Shown in pieces: positions 6,311 through 34,021 of a stretch of 34,021 nt of DNA; position 1 is the first letter of the stretch; every line of letters begins with the position of its first letter. The notes beneath the pieces are model-generated. The model was not told the DNA's origin. It ran no database searches and worked only from the letters and a program-made list of their open reading frames with translations. The translations under genes were made by a program, and so were the position numbers. Origin of the DNA: a virus (Duplodnaviria; Caudoviricetes); the IMG/VR virus record IMGVR_UViG_3300007004_000008, positions 1 to 34,021 of that record, one strand, 5' to 3'.

Positions 6311-6322
6311 CCGGCCGCCTCC

Positions 6323-6625
6323 CTACTTGGTCCTTCTGGGCGGCGGCGGAATGTCGTTCGCGCCTCGCACCAGGCCAGCACTGGCCCTCTGGTGTTCGGG
6401 CGTCGCCCCCCACGTCTCGCGGTTGGGGTCCGCCCGTGCGCTCAAGCCGATCATCTTGTCGTCCATCGCCTTGAGCACGTCCATCGGTGCCGATGCCACG
6501 ATGGCGTACACGGCGTGAAGCCACACACTCGCGGGTTCCCGCGTTGTGATGCCCCGGAGGGCCAGCTGGCCCGCCAGGTACGGGTGGAGAACGGGGTCCT
6601 GGGTGAGGGTGACGATCACCTTCAC
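6323..6625 (-). CDS. tail assembly chaperone, second ORF (gpT-like; possibly reached by -1 frameshift)
   Basis: Lies in the -1 frame between the chaperone and tape measure; ends with a TWGATPEHQ motif; GTG 6625 overlaps the upstream TGA. Confidence 0.65.
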   Translation of the reverse strand: MKVIVTLTQDPVLHPYLAGQLALRGITTREPASVWLHAVYAIVASAPMDVLKAMDDKMIGLSARADPNRETWGATPEHQRASAGLVRGANDIPPPPRRTK

Positions 6626-7161
6626 CCAGCCGTAGGGTGGCCCGTGCTCGCTGCGATGAAGTCCTTGGAGATTTCGAGGAGCGTGGACAGCTTCACGTAC
6701 ACGTCCTCGTCCTCCATGAGCACGTGGAGCCACCGGCGGCGCGAGGTCCACCGGCTCTTGTCCATCCACCGGTCCAGGCTGACCGTGTCGCTGAACGGGT
6801 AGATGTTGCCGTCCGGTCCCCGGTACGCGCGCTCGTGGGCGGGGCCGTCGTCGCGAACCTGCCCGTGCTGCGACTCCCAGGAGTTCCGGGGCGCGGCGTC
6901 GGGGCGCTTCAGCTCCTCGGGCTTCCACTTGGAGTTGACCTCGCCGTCCTTGTCCGTGATGGACTTGGCCAGCGTCTTGGCGAGGACCTCCAGCTGGCGT
7001 TCGGGCTTGTCGTCGTCGGCCAGCAGCATGCGGAGCACGTCACCAGCACCGACGCGCGGCGCGGCCGTGAACTCGTGGGTTTCCTTCTCGTCGTCGCGGT
7101 AGACGACCAGGCCGAACTGGAACGGCTCCGGCTGGGTTTCGTTGCCGCCGTACGTCTTCAC
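6622..7161 (-). CDS. tail assembly chaperone (gpG-like)
   Basis: 179 aa from GTG 7161 with GGAG RBS; ends ...STGHPTAG; position upstream of tape measure. Confidence 0.7.
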   Translation of the reverse strand: MKTYGGNETQPEPFQFGLVVYRDDEKETHEFTAAPRVGAGDVLRMLLADDDKPERQLEVLAKTLAKSITDKDGEVNSKWKPEELKRPDAAPRNSWESQHGQVRDDGPAHERAYRGPDGNIYPFSDTVSLDRWMDKSRWTSRRRWLHVLMEDEDVYVKLSTLLEISKDFIAASTGHPTAG

Positions 7162-11214: not shown

Positions 11215-12069
11215 TCAGGCCGAGACCGCGCCCGGGAGGGCGGCCTGGATTGCGAAGTGCGTGCAGGGGTCGAACGTTGCTGCGAACACCCGGTTGGCCC
11301 ACACGGTGCGCCGGTTGATCGAGCGGTCCAAAGTGGACACGGGCTCGATGCCGATATCCACAGAGGCCGTGCGCACCTGAACGGGACCGGTCGCGTACAT
11401 CCACGCGGTCTCGTCCGTGACTGCCTGCCCGGCCGGGCCGGTGCCCGTGTAGCCGGAGTCAGCGATCACGAGCGCGCCCGTCTTGGTGTAGAGCAGGTTC
11501 CCGTTCCGGATCAGTCCGGCGTCCGCGTCGGGGACGAGACGGATCGGCATGTGGATGACCACCTGCTGACCGCCTGCATCGCGCCGTGCCGCCTCCTCCA
11601 AGAGCCCGAGGGCCTCCAGGACGGGGTAAGGCCCGGTGCCCACGGTGGTAGCCGTGGCGCGCGCCAGATAGTTGTTGGTCCTGCCGGTCTCGTCTCGCGT
11701 GTCGTACGTGTTCGCCTGGGTGAGCGTGCCCTCCCAGAGTTCCTCGGCGATCACGTGAGATGCCACGGCATCGGCCATGCGCTCCACGCGCGAGGTGTCG
11801 AACTCACCACTGAGCGTGGTGCATTCGTCCCGCACGCGGTACGCCATCGGCCGGTAGTACTCCAGGCCGTTGCCATCGGCGGCCGGGGCGCTGTTCAGCG
11901 TGTCGCAAGGGTCGTACCCCTGCCACGTGGGACAGCGCTCGGTCCGCCACGCGAACCCGTTCACCCAGTCCTGATCGGACTCACCGCGCGGCCGGATGGC
12001 CGACACGAGCAGTCCAGACGTGGGCGCGGCGGCCTGTACCGGCTGGACCTCGGTGAAGATCATCACCAT
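11215..12069 (-). CDS. major capsid pentamer protein (second capsid protein)
   Basis: 284 aa directly after the main capsid gene; WMYATGPV and FAATFDPC motifs; arrangement like cluster-B-type hexamer/pentamer pairs. Confidence 0.7.
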   Translation of the reverse strand: MVMIFTEVQPVQAAAPTSGLLVSAIRPRGESDQDWVNGFAWRTERCPTWQGYDPCDTLNSAPAADGNGLEYYRPMAYRVRDECTTLSGEFDTSRVERMADAVASHVIAEELWEGTLTQANTYDTRDETGRTNNYLARATATTVGTGPYPVLEALGLLEEAARRDAGGQQVVIHMPIRLVPDADAGLIRNGNLLYTKTGALVIADSGYTGTGPAGQAVTDETAWMYATGPVQVRTASVDIGIEPVSTLDRSINRRTVWANRVFAATFDPCTHFAIQAALPGAVSA

Positions 12070-12139: not shown

Positions 12140-13837
12140 TCAGTCCGTGAAGGCCGTGGAGATCGTGCCCGCCGTGGAGCCGGTCGGCTGGACCTCCATG
12201 TTCAGGCGCAGCGTCTCCACGCCCTTGAACGCCACACCCTCGAACGTCTCCATGAACGTCCGGTAACGGTTCTTGGCGTTCAGCGTGGAGTCCCGGACCA
12301 GACCGAGGTCCAGGATGCCGCCGTCCAGGTACAGCCACTCGCCCTCCACGAACAGGACGGCGTCGATCCGGTCGATGAAACCGGGGATCGCCGAGTTCGC
12401 GGTGACGTTCGCGTACACCTGAGCCGGAACGTTCGGCGTCACCGTGGCGTCGGCCGCGAGGCCGTCCAGGTGGAAGGTGATGTTGACGCCGCGCGCCCGG
12501 AACCAGCCCTGGATGGTCGCGTCCGCGACGGCCAGCGCCTCCAGGTCACCGGCGAAACCACGCGTGAGGTCCGCGCGGAACAGCTCCTTGACCCAGGCAG
12601 GCAGGATCATCCGGAGCGGGACCATGCTGTCCAGGCGGTGCTTGGACCGGTAGTACGCAATGGTCTTGTCCAGGTTCACCAGCACGTCCCGGACGGCCGA
12701 AACAGCCTTGGCCGCCGTGAGGTGCTTGGAGCCCGCCAGCAGGCGCTGGAGGAGCTGGTTCTCCGCGAACCGGGCGTGAGCCACGTCCGCCGCGCGGTTG
12801 GTCGCGTCGGTCCACTCCCGGTCGAACCGGGTGGTGATGTTCGGGAACTCCAGGCAGAGGTACGTGGAGTAGATCGTGGCCTCGGACAGGCCGGGGCACT
12901 CCACGACGAAACAGGACTTGGTGGGGTCCGGAACGTCCGGGTCCTCCACGACGCCCACGGCCTCGTCGTCGTCCAGCGTCCAGACGCCCAGGCCCGAGGA
13001 CATGGAGAGCGCGTCGAACGGCGCACGCCACTGGATGCCGCCGCGCTCCACACCGAACCGGGTCAGCGCGTCGCGAATCGGGCGCGCGGTGACGCCCACG
13101 TTCGCGATGGCGTAATCGGTCTCCAGGGGGGCGCAGAGACCACCGGCGGCCACGAGGGCCTCCTGGCCGGTCGCCGCCTCGATGCGCTCCGTGTTGACCG
13201 CCCACGAGTCCTTCGTGAGCATGCGCTCCGCCGGGAACTCGGACTGGATGCGGGCCACGTGGTAGCGGCCGTCAGCAGAGGTCCGGTTCAGCGTGTTGAA
13301 CCGCTCGGACATCGCCGTTGCCAGCTGGACGCGGTCGATCTGCTGACCAGCCTCGAACCCGGGGATGTTGCCCTGGACTCGCGCGGTCGTGACGACGCGT
13401 CCCGCCTTCCTGGCCGGGGGCTTGTTACCCGCGCGCTTGGCCGACATGGAACCGACGCGCTTGCGGGGCTTGGCACCGGCGGTGACGGCGTCCTCCTTGG
13501 GAGCCTCTTCACCCTCGGGCGCCTCCTCCTCGCCGTCCTCCTCCTCGTCGCCCTCGGTCTCGGCGGGGACCTCTTCCGGGGTCTCCTCCTCTTCCGGGGT
13601 CTCCTCGGCGAAGTTCGCGAGGGCAGCGGCCTGGCGGTCGGCCAGCTCGGTGCGGCGCGTCTGCTCGGCCTGGATCTGCGAACGCGCGGCGGCCAGTGCC
13701 TCCAGGCGCTCGACGTTCTCAGTCGTCGCGGCGGTCGAACGCAGTTCCTGGGCGTTGGCGCCGATGGCGGCCAATGCCTCTCCCAGCTCCGCGTCCGTAG
13801 CCTCCGCGAGACGGGCCAGGATGGTCTCGAAGTCCAC
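12140..13837 (-). CDS. major capsid (hexamer) protein with N-terminal scaffold-like region
   Basis: 565 aa; helical/acidic N-terminus; ALVAAGGLCAPLETDY and LDLGLVRDSTLNAKNRY motifs typical of this actinophage capsid family. Confidence 0.88.
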   Translation of the reverse strand: MDFETILARLAEATDAELGEALAAIGANAQELRSTAATTENVERLEALAAARSQIQAEQTRRTELADRQAAALANFAEETPEEEETPEEVPAETEGDEEEDGEEEAPEGEEAPKEDAVTAGAKPRKRVGSMSAKRAGNKPPARKAGRVVTTARVQGNIPGFEAGQQIDRVQLATAMSERFNTLNRTSADGRYHVARIQSEFPAERMLTKDSWAVNTERIEAATGQEALVAAGGLCAPLETDYAIANVGVTARPIRDALTRFGVERGGIQWRAPFDALSMSSGLGVWTLDDDEAVGVVEDPDVPDPTKSCFVVECPGLSEATIYSTYLCLEFPNITTRFDREWTDATNRAADVAHARFAENQLLQRLLAGSKHLTAAKAVSAVRDVLVNLDKTIAYYRSKHRLDSMVPLRMILPAWVKELFRADLTRGFAGDLEALAVADATIQGWFRARGVNITFHLDGLAADATVTPNVPAQVYANVTANSAIPGFIDRIDAVLFVEGEWLYLDGGILDLGLVRDSTLNAKNRYRTFMETFEGVAFKGVETLRLNMEVQPTGSTAGTISTAFTD

Positions 13838-21743: not shown

Positions 21744-22292
21744 TCAGATGTAGCGGACGCGTTCGCGGCGTGCGATGTCGGCGAGGACGGCGTGGCGCAC
21801 CCTGTTGTGCCGGGCGTCCATGAGGGCGTTATGTGCTCCGGCGGTCTGCCTGGGCAGTTCCGGGTTCCCAAGGCGATGGGCTTCCTGGCGGAGGTCGTTG
21901 GTCCACCGGGGCATGCCCTCGGGGAGGGTGGACATGCGCCCCCAGAGCTGGCAGTAGACGACGTGGTCGTATGCGCCGTACCACGCCCACAGTTCGGGGT
22001 CGGGGCGCTCCAGGACGAACTCCTCCAGTTCCTTGGCGATCACGTCCCGGAACTTGACAGCGGGGTGGGACTGGTCGAGGTGCCACTGGCCGCCGATCCA
22101 CTCGCCCGGCAGGCTGGGGATCACGTTGTCCATGAGCCACTCGTGGTCACGGACGGAGTCCCAGTCAGCATCGAGCACCACGGCGTAGTACTCGGCCCCG
22201 TCCTCGCGCACGGCGCCGATGGAGAGCAGGTCCACGGGGTACTCGGGGCCTCGCTCCAGGAACTCGGTGTCATACCAGATGCGGTTCTGCAC
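21744..22292 (-). CDS. DEDDh 3'-5' exoribonuclease, RNase AS (Rv2179c)-like
   Basis: WYDTEF, LLSIGAVREDGAEYYAV, ELWAWYGAYDHVVYCQLWG and HNALMDAR closely match recalled RNase AS motifs; GTG 22292 with GAGGAG RBS. Confidence 0.85.
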   Translation of the reverse strand: MQNRIWYDTEFLERGPEYPVDLLSIGAVREDGAEYYAVVLDADWDSVRDHEWLMDNVIPSLPGEWIGGQWHLDQSHPAVKFRDVIAKELEEFVLERPDPELWAWYGAYDHVVYCQLWGRMSTLPEGMPRWTNDLRQEAHRLGNPELPRQTAGAHNALMDARHNRVRHAVLADIARRERVRYI

Positions 22293-22303
22293 GGTGTCTC
22301 TCC

Positions 22304-22498
22304 TCAGTGGCTGGACAGGTGCCACCAGCCCAGCGGGCAGGGGCCGTAGACGTGGTTCTCGGCCCGCCGGAGGGTCTTGCCCTGTCGGCGGGCCTTGGTG
22401 TGGCGGCGTGCGCGGACGCGCCCGAGGGCGCGGCGTGCATCACCCTCGGACGCGTGGCAGTGCTTCCCGCAGTGCGGGCAGAGGGCGGAGTCACCCAC
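22304..22498 (-). CDS. small basic Zn-binding-like phage protein
   Basis: 64 aa; CPHCGK...YGPCPLGWWHLSS pattern common in actinophages. Confidence 0.6.
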   Translation of the reverse strand: MGDSALCPHCGKHCHASEGDARRALGRVRARRHTKARRQGKTLRRAENHVYGPCPLGWWHLSSH

Positions 22499-23230: not shown

Positions 23231-23697
23231 CGGGCGTTCTCCTCGGTGTAGGCCTTGGCGGCCGGGTAGTTGGGGAGGCGGAGCTTGGACTTGATGCCAC
23301 CGTTGGGGTAGCGGATCTCCACGAGCGCGCCCAGGTTCAGGATGTACAGGCCGCCGGTGTCGAACCACCAGGAGTAATCGGTGTCCAGGCTGTTGGCGTA
23401 CGGGTGGGGCCACTCGTACGAGACGGACTCCGGGGCCACGTGCTCGTGGAGTCCGAGCATGTTCTTGACACGCTTCTCCCAGACGCCCTCGGTGTACTTC
23501 TGCTCCGCGTTGCCCTCGCGCCAGAGCCGGTACGGGGCGATGAGCTGATCGGCCAGCACGCCCACATCCACGCGGAGGACGGCGGTCCCGAGGTACCGGG
23601 CGGTGGGGCCTCGGCCGGTGTAGAAGTCGTGGGTGCGGTGCTCGGCCTTGGCCGCGTTGAGTGCATCCACCTTGCGCTGGTTCTCGGTCTGGTCCAT
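23227..23697 (-). CDS. hypothetical protein
   Basis: 156 aa; preceded by GAACGACC...GGGAGAAC leader. Confidence 0.7.
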   Translation of the reverse strand: MDQTENQRKVDALNAAKAEHRTHDFYTGRGPTARYLGTAVLRVDVGVLADQLIAPYRLWREGNAEQKYTEGVWEKRVKNMLGLHEHVAPESVSYEWPHPYANSLDTDYSWWFDTGGLYILNLGALVEIRYPNGGIKSKLRLPNYPAAKAYTEENAR

Positions 23698-23775
23698 GAC
23701 GTTCTCCCTCGGGTTCGGGTCGTTCGACGTGGGTACAACATACCCCCCGTCACGGGGTGCGCAACAGGGGGTATG
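23698..23775 (-). promoter_or_regulatory. repeat module copy 2 (degenerate): TTGCGC-N16-TATGTT + conserved leader
   Basis: -10 23737-23742, -35 23759-23764, C6 run; CATACCCCC/GGGGGTATG inverted repeat; leader GAACGACC...GGGAGAAC. Confidence 0.55.
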
Positions 23776-23790
23776 CCGTGTGACTTGTGC

Positions 23791-24411
23791 CTAGTACCCG
23801 CCGTGCCACTTCTTCTTGGGCGGGTTCGCCTGCTGGGCCTCGCGGGCGGCGTCCAGCTGGGCCTGTCGCCTGGTCTTGGGCGTGTGGTCCGGCTGCTCCC
23901 CGGGCTTCATGTAGTTCGGGTTCTTCTCGGACCAGACGACGTTGTCCGCCACCCGGTCGCCCTTCTTGTTCGAGGTGCAACCACCACCGTGGAACTTGCT
24001 CTTGCGGTTGCAACCACACACCAGGTACAGGCTGTTGTCGTTGCCGTCGATCGTGTCCGGGACCCTGACCTCCACCACCTGGTTGTAGGCGAGGGCCATC
24101 GTCTGCGCACAGGACGCGGAACACACGTCGTCCTGGCCGCCAAAGAAGCTGGTGCCGGTCTTCTTGCCGCAGTTCGCGCACTGGCCGTTCTTGATCAGCT
24201 CCCGCATCTCGCGGAGCTTCTCCTTGCTGTCAAGGCCCTTCTCCACCAGCTTCCAGCTGGTGATCTTCTTGGTGGCCGGGTCCACGGCCACCTTCTTGAT
24301 GGTCCAGACGCTGCCCTTGGTGGCGCCCTTGGTTCCCCACTTCAGCAGGAACGCGCCCGCCTTCCACGCGCCCTTGCCCGTGGCGATGGCAAAGCCCTTC
24401 CAGTGAGCCAC
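23791..24411 (-). CDS. Lys-rich, Cys-rich hypothetical protein
   Basis: 206 aa from GTG 24411 (GAGGAGGAG RBS); CANC...CSASC and VCGC...HGGGC clusters. Confidence 0.65.
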   Translation of the reverse strand: MAHWKGFAIATGKGAWKAGAFLLKWGTKGATKGSVWTIKKVAVDPATKKITSWKLVEKGLDSKEKLREMRELIKNGQCANCGKKTGTSFFGGQDDVCSASCAQTMALAYNQVVEVRVPDTIDGNDNSLYLVCGCNRKSKFHGGGCTSNKKGDRVADNVVWSEKNPNYMKPGEQPDHTPKTRRQAQLDAAREAQQANPPKKKWHGGY

Positions 24412-24451
24412 AGTCAGCTCCTCCTCTTTCTGAATCGGTTCGGTTGGTTGA

Positions 24452-25090
24452 TCAGAACGACAGGAGCGCGTCCACGGCGTCCTGGTCGTCCATGTAGACG
24501 CGTGCCCGGCGGACGAACGAGCGCAGGCCGTCCAGCTTGCGCGACCGGAGCGCGTCCTCCAGCGCATCGGCGGAGTGCCCCAGGCCGTTGATGAGGTCAA
24601 TCACGGCGGAGCCGAACACCACGCGGAACTCACTCGGCTTGTCGGCGATGCGCTGCCAACACTCCTGCTCGGCCTCCCACTGGACGACCTTGCCCAGGTG
24701 GAAATCCACGTTCATGGCAGTGGGCATCGTGGTGAACATGTCGTCACGCGCCTCCTTGCGACGCTTGGCGATCTTGACGCGCAACTCCTCGGCGTTCCGG
24801 CGGGCGTTGGCCACGCGCCAGTCCCGGAGCCGGATCACGAGGTGTTCGGCCCTGTCGCCCTCGGCGCGGACCGTGTCCATGATCTTGAGGTCCGGGTGCG
24901 CGGCGATCCACTCGAACGCCTCGCCGTTGGCATCCGGGTCCTCGGTGTCCAGCTGGACGTATCCGAGCGTGTCGGACGGCCCCCAGGTGAAGCGGTACTC
25001 CACGCCGTTCAGCTGGTCCGTCAGGTTGTGGACGGCGGGGAGCTGGGCGTCCCGGACGATCGTGAGGGCGAGGGAAACGTGGCGGTTCAT
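24452..25090 (-). CDS. hypothetical protein
   Basis: 212 aa, GGAG RBS, helical C-terminal half. Confidence 0.65.
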   Translation of the reverse strand: MNRHVSLALTIVRDAQLPAVHNLTDQLNGVEYRFTWGPSDTLGYVQLDTEDPDANGEAFEWIAAHPDLKIMDTVRAEGDRAEHLVIRLRDWRVANARRNAEELRVKIAKRRKEARDDMFTTMPTAMNVDFHLGKVVQWEAEQECWQRIADKPSEFRVVFGSAVIDLINGLGHSADALEDALRSRKLDGLRSFVRRARVYMDDQDAVDALLSF

Positions 25091-25118
25091 GATCGGGTCT
25101 CCAGGTTCATGAGCGGGG

Positions 25119-25145
25119 TGGGGGCCGGTGGTGGACCGGCCCCCA
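25119..25145 (-). terminator. GC-rich hairpin
   Basis: TGGGGGCCGGT-ggtgg-ACCGGCCCCCA just after the stop at 25158. Confidence 0.55.
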
Positions 25146-25157
25146 GTGGGCGGTAGG

Positions 25158-25778
25158 TCAGCCCGCGAGGGCGAACGCGGCGGCGTGCTCCGGGTTCTTG
25201 GGCGCGTAGGTCGCGAGGCGGTCCGCGAACTCGGCCGGGGTGAACACCTTCACGGCGACGCGCTTGGAGCGGTGGGCGCCGGTGCGGACCCGCTTGGAGG
25301 TGGCCGGGTTCACGGTGGCCACGCCCCGAGAGAACGCACCGGCGTAGCGCTGGGCCAGCTCGTCCGACAGGCCAGCGGCCACGAGGAGGGTCCGGGCGGG
25401 GGCCGGGGTGCCGTTGCGCTTGACGCGGGCGGCACGGGCCACAGAGCGGGTCTGGGCGGCCGTGGCGCGGAGCTTGCGGGCCTGGGCACGGCGGGCGGCG
25501 CGACGCTGGGTGGTCGACATGGTCAGGCCGTGCACGTGGGCGGCGGCGTCGGTGTCCAGCTGGATCTCCAGCTCCCGGCGGGCGTCCTCGGCGTACGCGG
25601 CGTCCTCGGCGGCCACGATCTGGCGGGCCTCGTGGACCAGGCAACGCTTGCACGAGACGCGGGACAGCGCGCCCTCGTGCGGGGTGAGCGAGCCGCCACG
25701 AGCACCGCACGCGGGCTTGCCGTCAACGATGAGGTGGGTGGTCTTGGCGAATCCGATGGAGGCGAGGGTGGCGCGCAT
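25158..25778 (-). CDS. hypothetical protein with N-terminal H..CG..CxxC module
   Basis: 206 aa; THLIVDGKPACG...VSCKRC...AEDAAYAED then Arg/Ala-rich domain. Confidence 0.75.
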   Translation of the reverse strand: MRATLASIGFAKTTHLIVDGKPACGARGGSLTPHEGALSRVSCKRCLVHEARQIVAAEDAAYAEDARRELEIQLDTDAAAHVHGLTMSTTQRRAARRAQARKLRATAAQTRSVARAARVKRNGTPAPARTLLVAAGLSDELAQRYAGAFSRGVATVNPATSKRVRTGAHRSKRVAVKVFTPAEFADRLATYAPKNPEHAAAFALAG

Positions 25779-25888
25779 TGTGGTTCTCCCGTGTGTCTCG
25801 GTCGTTCCTGCTGTTGTGAGGTGAACTTTACCCCCCGACCAGGGGTGAGCACAAGGGGCCTGACCTGCATCTTTGTCAGGCCCCTTGT
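25779..25888 (-). promoter_or_regulatory. repeat module copy 3: hairpin + TTGTGC-N18-TAAAGT + leader
   Basis: -10 25825-25830, -35 25849-25854; hairpin ACAAGGGGCCTGAC/GTCAGGCCCCTTGT 25851-25888; leader CAGGAACGACC...GGGAGAACC. Confidence 0.85.
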
Positions 25889-25897
25889 GGGTGCCGC

Positions 25898-26506
25898 CTA
25901 CTTGGCGGGCTTGGCGTGCCAGGCGGCGTACACCGGGCAGTGCTTCTCGTGCAGGTTGTCGTACTCCAGGCCCAGCACCACACAGTGGTCACACGGCGAG
26001 GCCGCCTGGATCTGGTCCAGCGAGTACTCCCGGTACTGGTAGCGGCCCGTGCTGAACACCTTGGGGGTGTGCGAGACAACCGCACCACGCGCCGTGGACC
26101 GGACCTCCAGCTTGCCCTCGGGGAGGACGGGGAAGTCCGCCGCGAACAGCAGGCGGGCCAGCTCGTGCTCCCGACGCTCGGACTCGATCGCGTCGTACTT
26201 GGAGCCCTTCTCCAGGCCGATGATGACCCCAATCTTGGGCATGAAATACCGCGTGAGCCCGGACGGGTTGCTCATCGTCTTGGAGTCCTCGGTGTGGATG
26301 TCCACCCGGTCGCCGTAGGCGTGACCGAGGGTGGCACCAACGATCGTCCAGCCGGTCATGTTGTCCGCCTCAATCGCAACGCGCTGGCCACCGAGGACCT
26401 TGATGACGTGGCGGAGGCTGCCCGGGGTCCACGTCCACTTCTCGTTCTTCCAGCGGGTGTCAACGGTGCTGCTCTTGAGGTCCGAGGCGCGGAAGGTGCT
26501 CGTCAT
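25898..26506 (-). CDS. hypothetical protein
   Basis: 202 aa from ATG 26506 after the conserved leader; C-terminal CDHC...HEKHC. Confidence 0.7.
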   Translation of the reverse strand: MTSTFRASDLKSSTVDTRWKNEKWTWTPGSLRHVIKVLGGQRVAIEADNMTGWTIVGATLGHAYGDRVDIHTEDSKTMSNPSGLTRYFMPKIGVIIGLEKGSKYDAIESERREHELARLLFAADFPVLPEGKLEVRSTARGAVVSHTPKVFSTGRYQYREYSLDQIQAASPCDHCVVLGLEYDNLHEKHCPVYAAWHAKPAK

Positions 26507-26613
26507 CTTGGTTCTCCCTGGTGTGTCCGGGTCGTTCCTGATGTCGTGAACTTTACCCCCCGATGCCGCAATAGCACAAGGGGCCTGACCAGCGTCTTTG
26601 GTCAGGCCCCTTG
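26507..26613 (-). promoter_or_regulatory. repeat module copy 4: hairpin + TTGTGC-N18-TAAAGT + leader
   Basis: -10 26550-26555, -35 26574-26579; 26573-26610 is identical (38 bp) to 33617-33654. Confidence 0.85.
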
Positions 26614-26616
26614 CTG

Positions 26617-26817
26617 TCACACCTTGGCGGTTGCCGTCACGGTCACGCCGTCCGTGAGGACGTGCCACCCCTTCCGGACCAGGCGCGCGCGGGCCGTGTT
26701 CATGTCGCCCCGGTTCCGGAACTTCACGATGGCCCGTGCCTCACCGCCCGCGAACGCCAGGCTGGTCACGTCTCCGCCGCACTCCGTGATCTCGGTGCGT
26801 CGGCTCCGCTCGCTCAT
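26617..26817 (-). CDS. small LxxxGW paralog 6 of 6
   Basis: 66 aa MSERSRRTE...RLVRKGWHV...GVTVTATAKV; ATGA overlap. Confidence 0.75.
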   Translation of the reverse strand: MSERSRRTEITECGGDVTSLAFAGGEARAIVKFRNRGDMNTARARLVRKGWHVLTDGVTVTATAKV

Positions 26818-27038
26818 CCCGAGTACCTCGCGGTGGCGGTGATCGTGTTGTCGTTGTTGACCACGACCGTCCAGCCCTTGGCGCGCAGAGCGGTGGCCAC
26901 GCGGTTGGCGTGCTCCTTGCTCCGCATGGACGTTCCGGGGTACGTCGCGATCATGGACCCCGGCCCACCACTGCCGATGCTCACGCTCCGGCTCTGGGCG
27001 GTCGCCTCGCGGCGGCGTTCGTCGGCGTTCTTGGCCAT
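26814..27038 (-). CDS. small LxxxGW paralog 5 of 6
   Basis: 74 aa ...ALRAKGWTV...NTITATAR; TGATG overlap. Confidence 0.75.
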   Translation of the reverse strand: MAKNADERRREATAQSRSVSIGSGGPGSMIATYPGTSMRSKEHANRVATALRAKGWTVVVNNDNTITATARYSG

Positions 27039-27244
27039 CAGAGATCAGCCTCCATCATGATCGAAAGCCCACTGGTCCTTACGTGCCGCCACCCCTGGGC
27101 GGTGAGCTTGGCCTTGGTGCGCTGGAGGGCGTCGTGGCTCTGGCACTCAAGCACGCCGATGTAGTACCGGCCGCCCTTGATCTCGCGGCGCACGAACCTG
27201 CCTTCCACGGCGTTCAGCTGCGCCCTGCGGCTCTTCTCGCTCAC
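27038..27244 (-). CDS. small LxxxGW paralog 4 of 6
   Basis: 68 aa from GTG 27244, MSEKSRRAQ...KLTAQGWRH; GTGA overlap. Confidence 0.75.
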   Translation of the reverse strand: MSEKSRRAQLNAVEGRFVRREIKGGRYYIGVLECQSHDALQRTKAKLTAQGWRHVRTSGLSIMMEADL

Positions 27245-27453
27245 GCGACCACCACCAGGCAGCGGAGCGTCTTGCCGTCCTTGCTCACGCCCCAACCGCC
27301 GAGGCGCTGGAGACGGGACTGGGCCGTGATGGCCTCCAGGTCCGTCTTGAACGCCACCCGGGCCGTGAACACGGAGCCCTTGCGCCTGGGCTGGGAGACG
27401 CTCCCGCCCTTCAGGGCCTCCAGCTCCTTGAGGCGTGCCGCCTGGTTCTTCAC
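27241..27453 (-). CDS. small LxxxGW paralog 3 of 6
   Basis: 70 aa ...RLQRLGGWGV...GKTLRC; GTGA overlap. Confidence 0.7.
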   Translation of the reverse strand: MKNQAARLKELEALKGGSVSQPRRKGSVFTARVAFKTDLEAITAQSRLQRLGGWGVSKDGKTLRCLVVVA

Positions 27454-27656
27454 GCGGTCACCTCTGCCCGGACCGTGTTGCCGCCGTTCTTGACGCTGGT
27501 CTTCCAGCCCAGGCGACCGAACTCCGTGAGCACGTGGCGGTGGTCGTCGGCGGTCGGGGTCTGGACCTCGGCCACCACCTTCCCCTTGCTGGTGGTCACG
27601 TTGATCGTGAGATCCCTCGCGCGGGCGATCCTGCGCGCTTCACTGCCCCTGCTCAT
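27450..27656 (-). CDS. small LxxxGW paralog 2 of 6
   Basis: 68 aa from ATG 27656, MSRGSEARR...EFGRLGWKT..KNGGNTVRAE; ATGA overlap. Confidence 0.75.
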   Translation of the reverse strand: MSRGSEARRIARARDLTINVTTSKGKVVAEVQTPTADDHRHVLTEFGRLGWKTSVKNGGNTVRAEVTA

Positions 27657-27865
27657 CCGATCTTCCTCTCTGCCTTGACCTCGGTGTATCCGTTCTTGCA
27701 GCTGGCGGACCAGCCCTCCAGTTCGAACCGCTCCCGCACCGTGCGGGCCTGCTCCTTGGTGAGGCCCTTCACGGTCACGATCATGTATCCACGGCTCACC
27801 TGGAACTCGGGGCGGAACCCCCGTGCGGCGGCGCGCGCCTCGGTGCGGCGCTTGGCCTCGCTCAT
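27653..27865 (-). CDS. small LxxxGW paralog 1 of 6
   Basis: 70 aa MSEAKRRTE...RFELEGWSA..KNGYTEVKAE; GGAAGGGA RBS. Confidence 0.75.
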   Translation of the reverse strand: MSEAKRRTEARAAARGFRPEFQVSRGYMIVTVKGLTKEQARTVRERFELEGWSASCKNGYTEVKAERKIG

Positions 27866-27885
27866 GCGCTCTTCCCTTCCCGGGC

Positions 27886-27919
27886 GTTCCGGTGGCTCTT
27901 CCGCCGAACCACCGGAACG
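27886..27919 (-). terminator. hairpin upstream of the six-paralog cluster
   Basis: CGTTCCGGTGG ... CCACCGGAACG inverted repeat; no U-tract. Confidence 0.45.
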
Positions 27920-27924
27920 TCCTG

Positions 27925-28110
27925 CTATGCGGGCCGGTAGTACTTCTGACCCTTCTTGCTCTTGTCAAACCATGAGTGGTCCAGAGGCTTGGCTCTGGCC
28001 CGTCCGTTCGCGTCGGCTACGTACACCTTCCGACCCTCCACCCGGAGCACGGTCACCACGCGGTCGTTCTGCCCGCCACGCCACCGGCTGTTGATTGCCG
28101 GGACAGGCAC
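27925..28110 (-). CDS. small basic beta-rich (SH3-like) hypothetical protein
   Basis: 61 aa, SRWR...RVVTVLRVEGRKVYV pattern; purine-rich RBS. Confidence 0.6.
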   Translation of the reverse strand: MPVPAINSRWRGGQNDRVVTVLRVEGRKVYVADANGRARAKPLDHSWFDKSKKGQKYYRPA

Positions 28111-28131
28111 CTGTTCACCCCCTCTCGGGGC

Positions 28132-28605
28132 TCAGTCTGCGGCCTTACGCAACGGCCGCACGTCCTTCAGCTCCGCCCCCTTCAGCTCGTACCGCTGGCC
28201 GTCGTACCGGACCCGGAGCCGGGTGACGTGCTCGCTGAACGGGTCCCGCTCGATCCCTGCCACCGTGCCGTGGAACATCCACTGGGAGCAGCCCAGCGAC
28301 GGCCGGTAGGTAGACCTCAAAGTCACGCTCACCTTGTCCTTGAGCGCGAGGCCGTCCAGGTCGCGCTGGTGGAGCAGGTCGTACAACCACGCCAGCTGAC
28401 CGAGGATGTGGCGCTCCGGGCCGTCCGCCTCGCCCATGCGCCGGAGGCCCTCGGCGGCCGTGCGGTGGCGCTTGTCGTCCGGCTCGTGCTCGGTGCGCAT
28501 GGTCTCCAGGCGGTAGCGCTCGGAGAGGCTCACCAGCTTGTGGACCACGTCCGCCGTGATGGGCGCGTAGAGCCCGCTCGGACTGGCGATGTCGTTCACG
28601 TCCAT
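28132..28605 (-). CDS. hypothetical protein (probably leaderless)
   Basis: 157 aa from ATG 28605, 7 nt downstream of a TAAAGT -10 box. Confidence 0.65.
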   Translation of the reverse strand: MDVNDIASPSGLYAPITADVVHKLVSLSERYRLETMRTEHEPDDKRHRTAAEGLRRMGEADGPERHILGQLAWLYDLLHQRDLDGLALKDKVSVTLRSTYRPSLGCSQWMFHGTVAGIERDPFSEHVTRLRVRYDGQRYELKGAELKDVRPLRKAAD

Positions 28606-28670
28606 ACCTCCTACTTTACACCCCGTAGAGGGGGAGGGAAGAGGCGGGGTAGTGGCACCTACCCCGCCTC
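28606..28670 (-). promoter_or_regulatory. repeat module copy 5 (variant): 12-bp hairpin + TAAAGT -10, weak -35
   Basis: -10 28613-28618; CCCCG..GGGGG spacer; GAGGCGGGGTAG/CTACCCCGCCTC stem 28641-28670. Confidence 0.55.
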
Positions 28671-28676
28671 CGGGGA

Positions 28677-29924
28677 TCACGAGCGGTACGCGGTGAAGTT
28701 GCGCCCCAGGATGTCGTTCGCCACCCAGCGGGGGCGGTCCTCGTCCGTGGGGTTCAGCCACACCCCCGGGCGTCCCAGCGTCGCGGAGTTCTCGGAGCCC
28801 AGGACCTCGTACGTGCGGCCGTCCGTCCGCTCCAGCAGGTGCGCGCGGAACGGGACGTACGCGCTGGCCTCGTCGGCTACGAGGTACTTCAGCGGCCACC
28901 AGTCCGTCTCTGCGCGCTGGCCGTCCGGGTAGACGCGCTGCGCCCAGACGCCCGGCTCCCCGCCGAGGGTCTCGGAGCCGAGGACGCGGAGGCTGTCCCC
29001 GTCCGCGAGGTGGGGGAGCTGCTCCTTGAACGGCACCACGCGCACCGGCTCCGGGGAGACCGTGTACGGCAGGACCGTGGGGCCGTCCTTCCACAACTCC
29101 TTGATGGCCTTCACGCCGTCCAGGAGCGTCCAGCGGCGCGTCTTGAGGCGCTCGGCCTTGGCGTCGTCCCCGAGGCGCTCCGCCTGGTCGCGCTCGGTGG
29201 AGGCGGCGTCGGCGAGTCCCCGGACGACTCGGGCGGCCATGCGCGCCCCGTACTCGGCGGGCGAAACGGCGTGCGGGTAGGCAAGGGTGTCGTCGTCAAT
29301 GAGGATCATGGGCACGCCGTTGAGGAGCAGCACGTCCCCTTCCTTGACCTCCACGTAACGCTCCTTGGGTCCTGCCCAGGCGCTGATCACGGAGGACAGG
29401 GGGATGAGCGCGCAGTACGGGCCGGGGATGACCGGCCCCTGGTGGACGCGACGCGCCTCACCTTCAGGTCCCACGTACATGACCGAAAACCGCATCGTGC
29501 CGCGCCCGTAGCGCGAGTGCATCCGGTACACCGTGCGCGGGCCGTCCAGGGCCTCGTCCGACACCCAGTGGTCTGCGCCGTAGTTGGTCTGGGCCTTCAG
29601 CTCCACGACATGCACGGCCGGGACGACCACGGCGGCACGGCGGGCGGCCAACTCCTCGGCCTGCCGGACAGCCAGCGCCTCGTACGCGGCGGCGTCCTCG
29701 GCGCGCTGACGGCGGATGTCAGCCTCACGGCGTGCGCGGAGTTCCGCCTGGGCCAGCTTGGTGATGCAGTTGCGGCACGTCACGGTGCCGCCCTCGTGGG
29801 CCACGCCGTTGAACGAGTCCCGGCCGCAGAGGTAGAGGCTCAGTCCGTCCTGGAACCCGATGCCCTCGGCGGTCCGCGCGGGGACGTGGTGGACCTTGCT
29901 CTTGCCGCTGGTCAGCGTGTGCAT
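28677..29924 (-). CDS. multidomain hypothetical protein with N-terminal H..CG..CxxC module
   Basis: 415 aa from ATG 29924; SGKSKVHH...LCG...VTCRNC...AEDAAAYEA. Confidence 0.75.
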   Translation of the reverse strand: MHTLTSGKSKVHHVPARTAEGIGFQDGLSLYLCGRDSFNGVAHEGGTVTCRNCITKLAQAELRARREADIRRQRAEDAAAYEALAVRQAEELAARRAAVVVPAVHVVELKAQTNYGADHWVSDEALDGPRTVYRMHSRYGRGTMRFSVMYVGPEGEARRVHQGPVIPGPYCALIPLSSVISAWAGPKERYVEVKEGDVLLLNGVPMILIDDDTLAYPHAVSPAEYGARMAARVVRGLADAASTERDQAERLGDDAKAERLKTRRWTLLDGVKAIKELWKDGPTVLPYTVSPEPVRVVPFKEQLPHLADGDSLRVLGSETLGGEPGVWAQRVYPDGQRAETDWWPLKYLVADEASAYVPFRAHLLERTDGRTYEVLGSENSATLGRPGVWLNPTDEDRPRWVANDILGRNFTAYRS

Positions 29925-30030
29925 TTCGGTTCTCCCGTGTTCCGGTCGTTCCTGGTGTTGTGTCACGAACTTTACCCCCCGAGGTGGGGGAGCACAAGCG
30001 GGTGGAGCCGGTGAGTTCCGACTCCACCCG
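29925..30030 (-). promoter_or_regulatory. repeat module copy 6: hairpin + TTGTGC-N17-TAAAGT + leader
   Basis: -10 29969-29974, -35 29992-29997; stem CGGGTGGAG/CTCCACCCG 29999-30030; leader CAGGAACGACC...GGGAGAACC. Confidence 0.8.
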
Positions 30031-30036
30031 TTCGGA

Positions 30037-30246
30037 CTAGCGGGAGTACTTGAAGGACGCCACGGCCTGGGACTCCAGGCTGTAGAGCTTCAGCGCCCGG
30101 CCGCCCATGCTGTAGGCCATGAACGCCTGTCCCATCCGGGAGACGTAGCCCAGCTCCCGCTCCCCTTTGCCGCCCGTGTTGGTTTGCACCACGTAGGTGA
30201 CGCCCAGGGCCTCGGAGGCAAAGGTGCGGATCTGGATGGCGTTCAT
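30037..30246 (-). CDS. small hypothetical protein
   Basis: 69 aa from ATG 30246 with GGAGGT RBS; single-gene unit between two module copies. Confidence 0.7.
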   Translation of the reverse strand: MNAIQIRTFASEALGVTYVVQTNTGGKGERELGYVSRMGQAFMAYSMGGRALKLYSLESQAVASFKYSR

Positions 30247-30281
30247 GGGGACCTCCGGTGGGTGGTGGTTGGTGTGCCACC

Positions 30282-30312
30282 ACTTTACCCCCCGAGTCGG
30301 GGGGTCTGTCAA
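30282..30312 (-). promoter_or_regulatory. repeat module copy 7: TTGACA-N19-TAAAGT with perfect palindromic spacer
   Basis: ACCCCCCGAGTCGGGGGGT at 30287-30305; the -35 overlaps the TGA stop of the HNH gene. Confidence 0.75.
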
Positions 30313-30647
30313 ACCGCAGGACGCAGCGTCACCGGAATGGCGTAACGCCACAACTCGGCCTCGGCGGCGCGGCGGCGCGCGTGCCCGAGATAGGACCCGC
30401 TCCGGCTGTTGCACGGCCCGCACATCGGGCGGATGTTCCCCCGCCGGTACGTGCCGCCCTCGCATCCGGCCAGCGGCCAGCGGTCCACGGTGATCGTCTC
30501 GAACGTGAGCCACGTTGGACAGGTGGCACACCGGGCGCGCTTGCCGTTCCCGAACTGCTCCAGGAGCCACGCCTTGCGGCGGCGGCGCGTCTCCGCGTTG
30601 CCCCGGTCGTTCGTGTTCGACGTGCCGCGAGGCTGGGCGCGCGTCAC
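30309..30647 (-). CDS. HNH-family endonuclease
   Basis: 112 aa from GTG 30647; CATC...TVDR...GGTYRRGNIRPMCGPCNS beta-beta-alpha-metal pattern. Confidence 0.75.
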   Translation of the reverse strand: MTRAQPRGTSNTNDRGNAETRRRRKAWLLEQFGNGKRARCATCPTWLTFETITVDRWPLAGCEGGTYRRGNIRPMCGPCNSRSGSYLGHARRRAAEAELWRYAIPVTLRPAV

Positions 30648-30787
30648 CTCTTCCACCTGCCGCACTGCACGCACCGGGGCTTGGTGATGATGTTCAGCCA
30701 CGCGCCAGGCCTCGCCGGTCCGCGCCCGGCCGCCGCAGGGCGGTAGACGTGGAGCCCGAGGCGGCACAGCAACGGCTTGGGCCTCAC
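30644..30787 (-). CDS. 47-aa Zn-ribbon-like protein (LLCRLGLH...CVQCG), not in ORF track
   Basis: MRPKPLLCRLGLHVYRPAAAGRGPARPGAWLNIITKPRCVQCGRWKR; AGGAAGG RBS; GTGA overlap with HNH gene. Confidence 0.6.
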   Translation of the reverse strand: MRPKPLLCRLGLHVYRPAAAGRGPARPGAWLNIITKPRCVQCGRWKR

Positions 30788-30790
30788 TGG

Positions 30791-31210
30791 TCACACCTTC
30801 CTGAATCGGTACAGCCGGACGCCGTGGTAACGCTGGGCGAACCGCCCGTGGAAGGCGCACACGCGCACGCGGCGCGGCGGCATCCAAGGGCCGTCCTCGT
30901 CCCACACGGGCTCACGGGGCCAGACGGCCACGTGCGTGGCGGGCATGGCGTAGCGGTCCACGCACCACCGGCACGGCTTCTTGGGGAGCTGACGACGCGG
31001 AGGGGCGGCCGGGAACGCCCACCACCCGAGGTCGCGCTGTTCCTGCTCCTGGGCGTCCAGGGTGGCCAGCGCATCGGGGCAGGCCGAGACAGGCACCCAG
31101 AGGCCCGTCTCGGCGTTCGAGCACGTGAGGCACACGTCGCCAGGGGTGGTGTGTGTGCGCCACCCCTCGGCGTCGTGCGTCCCGATCTGGCCGGGCTCGT
31201 GCCTGGTCAC
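30791..31210 (-). CDS. Cys-rich hypothetical protein
   Basis: 139 aa from GTG 31210 (GTGA overlap); CLTC, CRWC and CAFH motifs. Confidence 0.55.
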   Translation of the reverse strand: MTRHEPGQIGTHDAEGWRTHTTPGDVCLTCSNAETGLWVPVSACPDALATLDAQEQEQRDLGWWAFPAAPPRRQLPKKPCRWCVDRYAMPATHVAVWPREPVWDEDGPWMPPRRVRVCAFHGRFAQRYHGVRLYRFRKV

Positions 31211-31734
31211 TTGCGCACCCAGGGCAGGCGCACGCACGTCCAGCCGCGCGCCTCGCTGGCGCCCACGTACCCGGGCTCCAGGACACCGGCGTCCACGAGG
31301 GCGCCCAGCAGGTCCTGGTAGCTCCCCCACGTCATGGCCTTGTCCACGTAGAGGTGGCCGTGGCCGGGCGTGGTGGAGGGGACGACGAACGCGGGGGCGG
31401 CCATCAAGAACGCCACATCGTCCTCGCGCCTCTTGACGCCCGTCACGCCCAGACCAGCGGCGTCCAGGGCGGTTGCCAGGGTGAGGGCCTCTGCGGTCGT
31501 CAGGGGGACGCTCAGGGCCAGCGCGCTGCCTCCGTGCTCCTTGGTGACCAGGACAGGGTGGTCCACGTCCAGGATGGGCTTGTGGAGGTCCTCGCCGTCC
31601 ACCAGGGACGTGATGACCGTGGCCTCCTCCAGGGGCGCGTCCATGATCGGCGGCGTCCGGTCCTCGTACGAGTGGGGCTGGTCGAACTCCACGAGCGCGA
31701 GGCGCTGGCCGGGGAGCGGGGACGTGATGCGCAT
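31207..31734 (-). CDS. hypothetical phage protein with DxD and STxxGHxHLY motifs
   Basis: 175 aa; HKPILDVDHP...VPSTTPGHGHLYVD...VRLPWVRK; AGGAG RBS. Confidence 0.7.
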   Translation of the reverse strand: MRITSPLPGQRLALVEFDQPHSYEDRTPPIMDAPLEEATVITSLVDGEDLHKPILDVDHPVLVTKEHGGSALALSVPLTTAEALTLATALDAAGLGVTGVKRREDDVAFLMAAPAFVVPSTTPGHGHLYVDKAMTWGSYQDLLGALVDAGVLEPGYVGASEARGWTCVRLPWVRK

Positions 31735-31765
31735 GCGGTCTCTCCTGGTGGTGTCGGGAAGGGGA

Positions 31766-31795
31766 AGGCCCGGCCCCGTGGTGGCGGCCGGGCCT
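31766..31795 (-). terminator. hairpin after 31801-32040 gene
   Basis: AGGCCCGGCC ... GGCCGGGCCT, followed by a pyrimidine run on the minus strand. Confidence 0.55.
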
Positions 31796-31800
31796 GGAGG

Positions 31801-32040
31801 CTAGCGGTCCAGCGTGGCGGTGGCCTGGCGGTCGCCCCGGGCAATGGCGGCGTCCGCGTGCTCCTCGGTGCCGCCCTGGGCGATGAACTCGGCGCGGAGG
31901 CCGTTCACCCGCTCGGTGAGCTGATGGTCAATGGCCGACACGGTGGCGGTGTCGATGGCGTCCCGCTGGCCGATGAAAGCGAAGCGAGCGAACGCGGCGC
32001 GCTGGAGGCGCTGGGCGGCAAGTGCGAGGTTGGCGTTCAT
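31801..32040 (-). CDS. small helical hypothetical protein
   Basis: 79 aa from ATG 32040 after the conserved leader. Confidence 0.7.
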   Translation of the reverse strand: MNANLALAAQRLQRAAFARFAFIGQRDAIDTATVSAIDHQLTERVNGLRAEFIAQGGTEEHADAAIARGDRQATATLDR

Positions 32041-32114
32041 GTGGTTCTCCCGGTGTCTCGGTCGTTCCGTTGTGTTGTAGGGCAACCTTAACCCCCCGGG
32101 GCGGGGGGTGTCTA
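32041..32114 (-). promoter_or_regulatory. repeat module copy 8: TAGACA-N18-TAAGGT + leader
   Basis: -10 32085-32090, -35 32109-32114; spacer palindrome ACCCCCCG-GGG-CGGGGGGT; leader GGAACGACCGAGACACCGGGAGAACC. Confidence 0.75.
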
Positions 32115-32143
32115 GCCCCGGGGACGGAAGTCACTCGAACGGA

Positions 32144-32815
32144 CTAGCTGGCGGCCTTGAGCAGGGCGTCCAGGTCGGCGCCCGGGAGGTAGCGCCACGT
32201 CACCACGTCCGCCTGGGGGACGCGGATGAGGGCGCCCGTCTCCGGGTGGAGAAGGACGGCCGTGCCGCCGTCCCAGCGGCGGAACTCGTACAGGCTGTCC
32301 GTCGCCGGGCCGACCAGAACCAGGCCCTTGGCCAGCCACGTGTCCAGCGGCACGGCGGCCGGGTAGGCCTCGGACGGGGCGGCCGTGCCCTCGGCCACCT
32401 CGGGCTCCGGCGCCTTGGTGTAGCGCTCCAGGAACCACGGCAGGGGCAGCGTGCCCGTGGAGCCGTCCAGGTGGCGGAAGGACACGCGGGGGAACGGGTG
32501 GGCGGCAACGCGGGTCACCTCGACCTCGGCGCCGTCCTCGGTGCGAACCCAAACGGTGGCGTGCTGCACATCGGCGGCGGCCACGGCCTTGGCGTCCTCG
32601 TGCTTGACGTTCTCGGCCAGCGCCTCGGCGTGAGCCTCCTCGGCGTGGACGGCGGCGATGCGGATGCAACGCTTGCAGGTGGCCGTCTCGGCCTTGACGT
32701 TCTTGGGGGCGGTGAACAGGCCGGAGCGGTGGGCGGCACCGCAGATCGTTCCGCAGTCCGTTCCCCAGTGGATGGACTTGCCGGAGCCAACGGTCACGGT
32801 GGTGGTGGCGTTCAT
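32144..32815 (-). CDS. hypothetical protein with N-terminal H..CG..CxxC module
   Basis: 223 aa from ATG 32815; GSGKSIHW...ICG...ATCKRC...AEEAHAEALAE. Confidence 0.75.
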   Translation of the reverse strand: MNATTTVTVGSGKSIHWGTDCGTICGAAHRSGLFTAPKNVKAETATCKRCIRIAAVHAEEAHAEALAENVKHEDAKAVAAADVQHATVWVRTEDGAEVEVTRVAAHPFPRVSFRHLDGSTGTLPLPWFLERYTKAPEPEVAEGTAAPSEAYPAAVPLDTWLAKGLVLVGPATDSLYEFRRWDGGTAVLLHPETGALIRVPQADVVTWRYLPGADLDALLKAAS

Positions 32816-32927
32816 CTGGTTCTCCCTGGTGTGTGTCCCGGTCGTTCCTGCTGAAGTGAACTTTACCCCCCGAGTCGGGGGGTCCGCAAGGGGGTCCGGC
32901 CAACTTCTTTCAGCCGGACCCACCTTG
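32816..32927 (-). promoter_or_regulatory. repeat module copy 9: hairpin + TTGCGG-N18-TAAAGT + leader
   Basis: -10 32860-32865, -35 32884-32889; ACCCCCCGAGTCGGGGGGT 32865-32883; stem GGGTCCGGC/GCCGGACCC. Confidence 0.85.
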
Positions 32928-32959
32928 ATTGATTCAGAAAAGCCTGACCAGCGGAAACG

Positions 32960-33550
32960 TCACACGTGGTGCTTGAACTCCACCGGCCACTCGCCGTGGA
33001 GCTTGGCGGCCAGACGGCGGGCGTAGCCCTCGGTGCCGTTGCGGCGCGAGGCCACGCGGCTGTTCACCTTCTCCACGTACGGCTCCGGGTGAACGGAGGA
33101 GTACGTGCCGTCCGGGAGCTTCACGGACAGGTGGACCACGAGCGTGGTCACGCGCCCCAGGCCCGGGGATGTGGCGAACACCTGGATGACCGGGGTCCCC
33201 TGGCGGACCTTCTCGGGGCTCCAGCCGTCCCAGTAGTGGCGGTCCTCGGGGGCGGCGGCGGCCAGCTCCGCCGACTCGTGAGCGATGGACTGGGCGATGA
33301 TCTCGGCGGCCTTGTCGTTCACCGCGCGCTCCACCCACACCAGGTCGGTGTAGCGCGCGCACCCACGGCGGCGGCCCTGGTTCTCGCCGTCCGAAACCCA
33401 GTCCGCGAGGTAGGTGATGCCGTACTTCTGGCGCGTGATCTCCAGGTTCTCCTCCCGGATCACGTGCACCGGCTGGGCGGCCGGGTTCATCACGATGGTG
33501 TCGGTGTCCAGCAGTTCGCGGACGGGGATCTGGATGACGTTGGTGTTCAT
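32960..33550 (-). CDS. hypothetical protein
   Basis: 196 aa from ATG 33550 after the conserved leader; two domains joined by an Ala/Glu helix. Confidence 0.7.
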   Translation of the reverse strand: MNTNVIQIPVRELLDTDTIVMNPAAQPVHVIREENLEITRQKYGITYLADWVSDGENQGRRRGCARYTDLVWVERAVNDKAAEIIAQSIAHESAELAAAAPEDRHYWDGWSPEKVRQGTPVIQVFATSPGLGRVTTLVVHLSVKLPDGTYSSVHPEPYVEKVNSRVASRRNGTEGYARRLAAKLHGEWPVEFKHHV

Positions 33551-33657
33551 GGGGTTCTCCCTGCTCAGTGGCTGGTCGTTCCTGCTGACCTGAACTTTAC
33601 CCCCCGACCCCCGGGCAGCACAAGGGGCCTGACCAGCGTCTTTGGTCAGGCCCCCTG
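33551..33657 (-). promoter_or_regulatory. repeat module copy 10: hairpin + TTGTGC-N18-TAAAGT + leader
   Basis: -10 33594-33599, -35 33618-33623; 38-bp identity with 26573-26610. Confidence 0.85.
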
Positions 33658-33660
33658 TGG

Positions 33661-34021
33661 TCAGGCCGGGCGGTGGATCGTCTTCACGCCCTTGTGGAAG
33701 CGCCATCCGACCGTGGCCGGGGTGCGCTTGTAGATCGTCACGCTCACGGAGAACACGCGCGCGTCGGTCTCGAACTGGCGTGCCGCCCAGGCCTCGGCCT
33801 CCTCCAGGGTCTCCATGCTGGCGTACAGGCCCATGTCCGAGCAGAAGCCGGTGTCCATCAGCTCAGCGCCCTTGGCGTCCCAGCCGGACACGTGGTAGCA
33901 GAACTCCGCCTGGGCGAGGTCTTGGGCAGCCTCGCGGGCCTTGGCGGCCTTCCAGCGCGCCTCGGCGATCTTGGCGCCCCGGTCGTTGATCTTGTCGACG
34001 GTGTCCAGGCCCAGCGCCAGC
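33661..34021 (-). CDS. C-terminal part of a hypothetical protein (start outside window)
   Basis: Frame open from 34020 (LALGLDTVDKINDRGAKIAEARWKAAK...) to TGA at 33661, directly followed by the module hairpin. Confidence 0.65.
   Translation of the reverse strand, partial: LALGLDTVDKINDRGAKIAEARWKAAKAREAAQDLAQAEFCYHVSGWDAKGAELMDTGFCSDMGLYASMETLEEAEAWAARQFETDARVFSVSVTIYKRTPATVGWRFHKGVKTIHRPA

Follow-up and report, generated by a model that had tools for sequence, protein, structure and literature searches.

Six consecutive small genes on a tailed-phage genome fragment are true paralogs of one uncatalogued protein family, and together they form a conserved but plastic tandem array. The array is likely a panel of separate inhibitors rather than one fixed six-part machine. 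In the explanation that we favor, with a probability of roughly 45%, its products are co-expressed, separately acting early proteins that would bind putative host targets through class-specific surfaces. Separate, specialised proteins fit the data because loss and exchange are gene-precise, because the members evolve at unequal rates and because their surfaces are class-specific.

The window, i.e. the whole stretch of 34,021 bases that was analysed, is part of a tailed-phage genome and has a G/C content of 65–75% in 1-kb bins. A PHROGs search located the genes for portal, head protease, major capsid, major tail, tape measure and Dit proteins within positions 90-20788; the array is found ~6 kb away from the portal gene, in a stretch of non-structural cassettes. 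All six array genes are encoded on the minus strand, with one gene for each of the paralog classes 1 to 6: o1 (27653-27865; 70 aa), o2 (27450-27656; 68 aa), o3 (27241-27453; 70 aa, GTG start), o4 (27038-27244; 68 aa, GTG start), o5 (26814-27038; 74 aa) and o6 (26617-26817; 66 aa). From o1 to o6 they overlap head-to-tail at ATGA, GTGA, GTGA, TGATG and ATGA junctions, and their GC3 is 0.88–0.94. Recomputing ORFs and hairpins recovered the six frames, their lengths, the overlapping junctions and both bracketing hairpins just as the first-pass annotation of this DNA had listed them. Its claim of tight translational coupling holds within the window and is too strict for the relatives, since a 9-nt gap separates o1 and o2 in the related loci L001 and L011; the near-equal protein amounts that it had deduced do not follow, as overlaps do not imply equal amounts. 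Directly upstream of the array lies a 61-aa basic ORF (27925-28110, minus strand; 79% identical in L001 and found in L011 too), preceded by a 157-aa orphan ORF (28132-28605, minus strand; 79% identical in L001), which is probably the first gene of a unit shared with the array. In L001, a further ORF (~3500-3948, plus strand), whose product has a hydrophobic segment near its N-terminus, lies between the 61-aa gene and the class 1 gene; it is missing from the window and from L011.

Capsid and portal match actinobacteriophage proteins at <40%, and two non-structural genes have their best matches in Gordonia, Microbacterium, Arthrobacter and Streptomyces phages; judged by these matches, the host is likely an actinobacterium. 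A DnaQ-like exonuclease is encoded at 21744-22325 (minus strand; 48–56% identical to Gordonia and Streptomyces phage proteins). The capsid genes (12140-13837 and 11215-12069, minus strand) are of the 'major capsid hexamer protein' type and remain below 40% identity to any cultured phage, so the clade apparently lacks a cultured representative in the collection searched. Relatives were found on contigs of up to 58.6–59.8 kb, with genomes of ~59 kb.

The paralogy of the six ORFs, which had been proposed from a shared sequence pattern, was confirmed in three ways. Pairwise shuffle tests gave p<=0.002 in 9/15 pairs, the remaining six pairs being weak. When a profile of five classes was used to score the held-out window protein (leave-one-class-out HMMs, 1000 shuffles each), 6/6 proteins reached 23.5–51 bits, compared to shuffled maxima of 8.6–12.7 bits. 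The all-versus-all HHalign comparison that had been recommended as a check yielded E-values from 1e-16 to 4e-3 in 15/15 class pairs, with probabilities <70% in five of them; class 2 is nearest to class 1 (97.8%). The expansion is indeed old, comprising six distantly related classes with mean identities of 22–32% between and 45–69% within classes. Similarity at the DNA level, said not to be evident, does exist, as o1 and o2 have 49 nt in common at 71%. The [LF]xxxGW pattern is present in all six members with a deviation in o3, where one additional residue precedes GW, as it does in 2/7 close o3 orthologs.

Profile searches returned 28 and 27 short proteins, along with 30 representatives. Among the latter, 19 are short members of the family; the other 11, long proteins of 197–1830 aa with multi-stretch repeats, were dropped as spurious on inspection. 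Loci L012 and L013 were likewise removed (E>0.4 with the family HMM), and locus L010 is the window itself. No fused longer forms occurred among 7997 candidates scored, which is weak evidence. In a tree of 56 members there is one clade per window gene; classes 1–5 are each monophyletic (support 90–98), while class 6 needs two changes. Family-wide conservation is confined to the small or hydrophobic positions G51, W52, L/F47, A30 and A40 and to R6/E9, the N-terminal R-x-x-E pattern being common to the classes; conservation analysis revealed no catalytic-type residue common to all of them. Other positions are conserved per class, e.g. position 31 (T/E/R/V/T/I). The last strand of o1–o5 also encodes the purine tract preceding the next start, so its conservation does not necessarily mark an interface.

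AlphaFold2 predicted an alpha-beta-beta-alpha-beta-beta order for o1 (pLDDT 94.7) and the same order for o5 (pLDDT 77.6), two models that are not fully independent because both alignments contained paralogs. The suggested comparison of AlphaFold monomers with Foldseek thus gave no differing folds for o1 and o5. ESM Atlas models of o1 and o6 have one top structural neighbor in common (TM 0.78 and 0.87), and an Atlas search by features gave no match. The predicted fold would be a common permuted ferredoxin-like arrangement and as such is not diagnostic. The top Foldseek matches in PDB and BFVD are designed or unnamed proteins, and the best hit of a PDB sequence search (E 0.12) is a designed mini-protein. 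The best natural match, o1 to the C-terminal domain of PulL (8a9w; Z 8.0, rmsd 2.1, 67 aligned residues, 8% identity), is tied with de novo designed proteins; o5 matches a C-terminal domain of the GspL/GspM/PilO type at Z 7.3, and Z-scores of 7.3–8.0 are common for unrelated models. The N-terminal domain of RNA polymerase alpha recurred at Z ~5 and was set aside as common-level. LAGLIDADG proteins have the same element order, and a LAGLIDADG-like fold is absent from the best 50 fold matches. Among the matches listed, no known anti-defence protein showed homology or a fold match.

Searches of Pfam, PHROGs and NCBIfam gave no convincing match, in keeping with the earlier statement that the family is unrecognised; the best library match, phrog_12895 (unknown function), was hit by 4/45 members at E 1e-4 and covered only the C-terminal half of o5. 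Cultured phages gave no match in blastn of positions 24000-30000 or in tblastn with o1, P0036 and the 158-codon frame upstream, and tblastn of o5 returned one chance match at E 4. Scanning viral contigs for the array and its neighbors retrieved one relative's contig only. Four other capsid-related records, one of them >=90% complete, contain no family member, and none of the matches listed was an RNA sample carrying the array. As far as searched, the uncatalogued family is therefore confined to one uncultured soil phage clade, in which five or six paralogs that are 20–30% identical are kept in a compact genome.

Evidence for separate action comes from these relatives. We read contigs from 8/10 listed runs and obtained at least eight arrays with a readable 3' end, the window included. 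Within the eight readable arrays among those listed, o6 is present in six and lost or truncated in two. In X6 record 1 (depth 19.6), just 12 letters separate o5 from the terminal hairpin, a clean loss of o6. In L001, five intact genes are followed by a class-6-like stub of 27 aa (56% identical to a full-length class-6-like protein) without a remainder in any frame. The gene is held in X2 record 10, X3 record 15, X6 record 2 and X8 record 14; X9 record 22 (59,521 bp) keeps the six-gene spacing, and L011 shows classes 1, 2, 3 and the start of 4. According to the tree, the gene order in L001 is 1, 2, 4, 3, 5, with classes 3 and 4 swapped; this swap is uncertain because gene 3 of L001 shares 35% and gene 4 32% identity with o6, values near those to their own tree classes (28% and 31%).

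Exchange is equally gene-precise. X2 record 10 is ~98% identical to the window over o1–o4 and o6 (24 differences in 1,053 aligned bases) and carries a diverged o5 allele of the same length; X3 record 15 also departs from the window sequence at the o5/o6 boundary. For proteins whose longest contigs have equal lengths, and which probably share a contig, identities to the window are discordant (o3 90% and o6 47%; o3 70% and o6 85%; o2 47% and o3 87%). Compared to L001, structural proteins are 84–89% and five other early genes 56–79% identical, whereas the array members are 78, 49, 47, 31 and 28% identical, class 1 being the most conserved. It had been suggested that a copy number fixed at six would speak for a complex and a variable one for a panel; with five or six intact genes per array, the outcome falls on the variable side. 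The panel reading rests on this loss and swapping of members gene by gene. Fixed hetero-hexameric paralog rings, such as those of the Sm/LSm, prefoldin or exosome type, have all six subunits always present, and a fixed six-subunit ring is weakened here by the o6 loss, the o5 allele replacement, the probable order swap and the discordant identities.

A looser assembly fares better. The paralogs may co-assemble into a hetero-oligomer, a ring or short filament with edge strands paired head-to-tail, built on a core of classes 1–5 with class 6 optional or replaceable by its kin 3 and 4. Each array seen has a single gene per class and none has two members of one class, no loss of classes 1–5 was seen in the arrays read, and one coupled unit bracketed by hairpins suits co-assembly. 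Hydrophobic positions that alternation suggests to be exposed are conserved within classes, and PulL and PulM, which have a like fold, heterodimerise through edge strands, PulM beta3 pairing with PulL beta1, as described in the available part of bioRxiv 10.1101/2022.07.16.500195. However, o6 is missing from 2/8 arrays, the o5 allele is exchanged next to nearly unchanged neighbors, members are inherited discordantly, and the conserved hydrophobic tail of class 3 need not be an interface, because its codons double as the purine tract ahead of the following start. We regard such a hetero-oligomer as possible, though rather unlikely; if it exists, it would be an unusual viral complex with exchangeable subunits. 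The tree contains a 3+3 split of classes 1/2/5 and 3/4/6 (support 94/89), which is neither shown nor rejected. A ring of five or six paralogs in which the two groups alternate, with subunits exchangeable between phages, is a more doubtful proposal still; if true, it would be a modular early machine whose host target is retuned by single-subunit swaps.

Early expression of the array, as the favored reading of separately acting proteins has it, is suggested by its surroundings, a region of small orphan genes that is cut into cassettes by a GGGG-TAAAGT motif. This motif is repeated in seven copies (0.6 expected), most of them with a TTG-type hexamer 17–19 nt upstream, and on sequence grounds the copies could be early promoters read by the host polymerase. 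For the array itself, the copy lies two genes upstream and is of variant sequence (28612-28622, minus strand); it appears to be the nearest candidate promoter for the unit that holds the array. Counting against early expression, a strict sigma-70 scan of 25700-30400 found 0 promoters. Directly before the o1 ribosome-binding site there is a 14-bp hairpin without a U-tract (27885-27919, minus strand; z -4.5, 0/200 shuffles equally stable); L011 has a hairpin of other sequence in the same place, and a processing or stabilising role is possible. The 16-bp downstream hairpin (26576-26614, minus strand; z -6.0, 0/200 shuffles equally stable) lies within a repeated terminator/promoter-like cassette and is not array-specific, since it is part of a 90-nt repeat with three copies in 23500-34021. 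It is followed by the promoter-like element of the next cassette (26550-26579, minus strand; TTGTGC, 18 nt, TAAAGT).

The head of these cassettes, consisting of hairpin, TTG-type hexamer, GGGG-TAAAGT and leader, is repeated in 25824-33603 (minus strand); the conserved leader, placed ahead of small orphan genes, has a GGGAGAACC ribosome-binding site at its end. The same head is present in the related locus L009 and could serve to point out early or anti-defence genes of the clade. The slot of a 203-aa orphan in the window (25898-26509) is occupied in L009 by a 254-aa ORF (6131-6895, plus strand) with an N-terminal hydrophobic segment and what we take to be a GDSL/SGNH-like motif; the cassette after the array is thus exchangeable. 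Two further orphan early ORFs (25158-25778 and 28677-29921, minus strand) both start with a similar H-x(n)-C-G-x(n)-C-x2-C motif, which is conserved in L001 and might be a shared N-terminal Zn-binding module. The sole clear plus-strand gene of the region (24452-25090; 212 aa) had no match in a Pfam/PHROG search.

In the mechanism we propose for separately acting proteins, one small scaffold would have been expanded in tandem long ago, giving five stable classes and one dispensable class. Early transcription of the unit by host RNA polymerase would be driven by the TAAAGT-type element at 28613-28618. With each stop overlapping the following start, and with ribosome-binding sites in the stretch that encodes the last strand of the gene before, one message would yield all members. 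Each protein, alone or as a small dimer, would then bind a different host protein of defence or housekeeping and blunt its action, by way of a binding surface specific to its class, be it the open face of the sheet, an edge strand or the second helix. Benefits that add up and depend on the host would explain why alleles are shuffled and o6 can be dropped. Of the two options raised at first, a hetero-oligomer or a panel of inhibitors or decoys against variants of one host target, the variable copy number favors the panel, but not the decoys: a different partner per class fits better, because the classes are stable lineages with different conserved surfaces. Speaking against a panel, uncorrected pN/pS is <1 in 8/8 ortholog pairs, so these pairs give no direct sign of positive selection. 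If the panel reading is correct, the array offers six candidate proteins that may help early in taking over actinobacterial hosts or in countering their defences, and one small, well-folded scaffold with a natural allele series.

Nucleic-acid binding is an improbable alternative, in which the proteins would coat or recognise phage or host DNA or RNA via the open beta-sheet with class-specific preferences. Open-sheet alpha/beta folds often bind nucleic acids, and net charge is +3 to +9 in 56/56 class members. The six window proteins are all basic, as had been noted (+5 to +9), but this is not special, as 2/6 other early ORFs, both neighbors, equal them in basicity per 70 aa; moreover, classes 1 and 2 have an invariant Glu on their central strands and no nucleic-acid-binding family stands out among the fold matches. 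Even less probable is a role as small internal virion proteins that would be packaged, enter the cell together with the DNA and either protect this DNA or disarm the host at entry. The proteins are small and basic with a common N-terminal R-x-x-E pattern, the phage encodes a head-protease-like gene, and tandem head-protein paralogs exist in SPN3US (family B, gp138-154; available part of PMC5694885); yet the N-terminal helix of o1 is predicted with confidence (pLDDT >90) to belong to the domain rather than to be a leader, and the array sits among non-structural cassettes. The o6 losses and the fast divergence of classes 2–6 might suggest a duplication that is neutral or in decay and retains one functional member at most; this is barely credible and, judged by the genes themselves, largely refuted by within-class conservation, given intact frames, GC3 of ~0.9, class-specific invariants and pN<pS in every pair.

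Small viral genes are known to form expanded sets of paralogs; a description of this family, or of its coupled layout with one gene per class, did not turn up in a literature search of mostly open papers and their main texts. The array shares its predicted element order with the GspL/GspM/PilO C-terminal domain (PulL 8a9w, XcpY 6ghu, PilO 2rjz, EpsM 1uv7), but with 8% identity and without a membrane anchor or secretion context. The proteins of 66–74 aa have no hydrophobic segment by inspection, they occur in a phage rather than a T2SS/T4P gene context, and 0/45 members match GspL/GspM/PilN/PilO-type Pfam or NCBIfam profiles at E<=0.05; the array thus does not belong to this family, and the match may reflect only a common arrangement. 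As far as the available part of PMC5694885 goes, paralog family B of SPN3US resembles the array in being a set of phage tandem paralogs whose number varies among relatives, but consists of virion head proteins of a 240-kb giant phage, whereas the array lies in a non-structural region of a ~59-kb phage; homology between the two is not to be expected. Genes 143-171 of mycobacteriophage Wildcat share small orphan genes, mosaic inheritance and repeated intergenic motifs with the array region, and such early small-gene regions of this phage are rich in host-toxic genes; in the available part of PMC7474061, genes 143-171 lie apart from one another and are not called paralogs, in contrast to the overlapped paralogs here. 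The AcrID1 expansion of Sulfolobus rudiviruses, as presented in the available part of PMC11065993, has no sequence link or listed fold link to the array, which is one coupled operon of a bacterial tailed phage with one gene per class and a putative inhibitory role. Still, both comprise many small divergent homologs in one viral genome (12 AcrID1 homologs in SIRV2) near a repeated early promoter-like motif, and in the rudiviruses conserved early promoters mark anti-defence genes and functional diversification of the homologs has been proposed.
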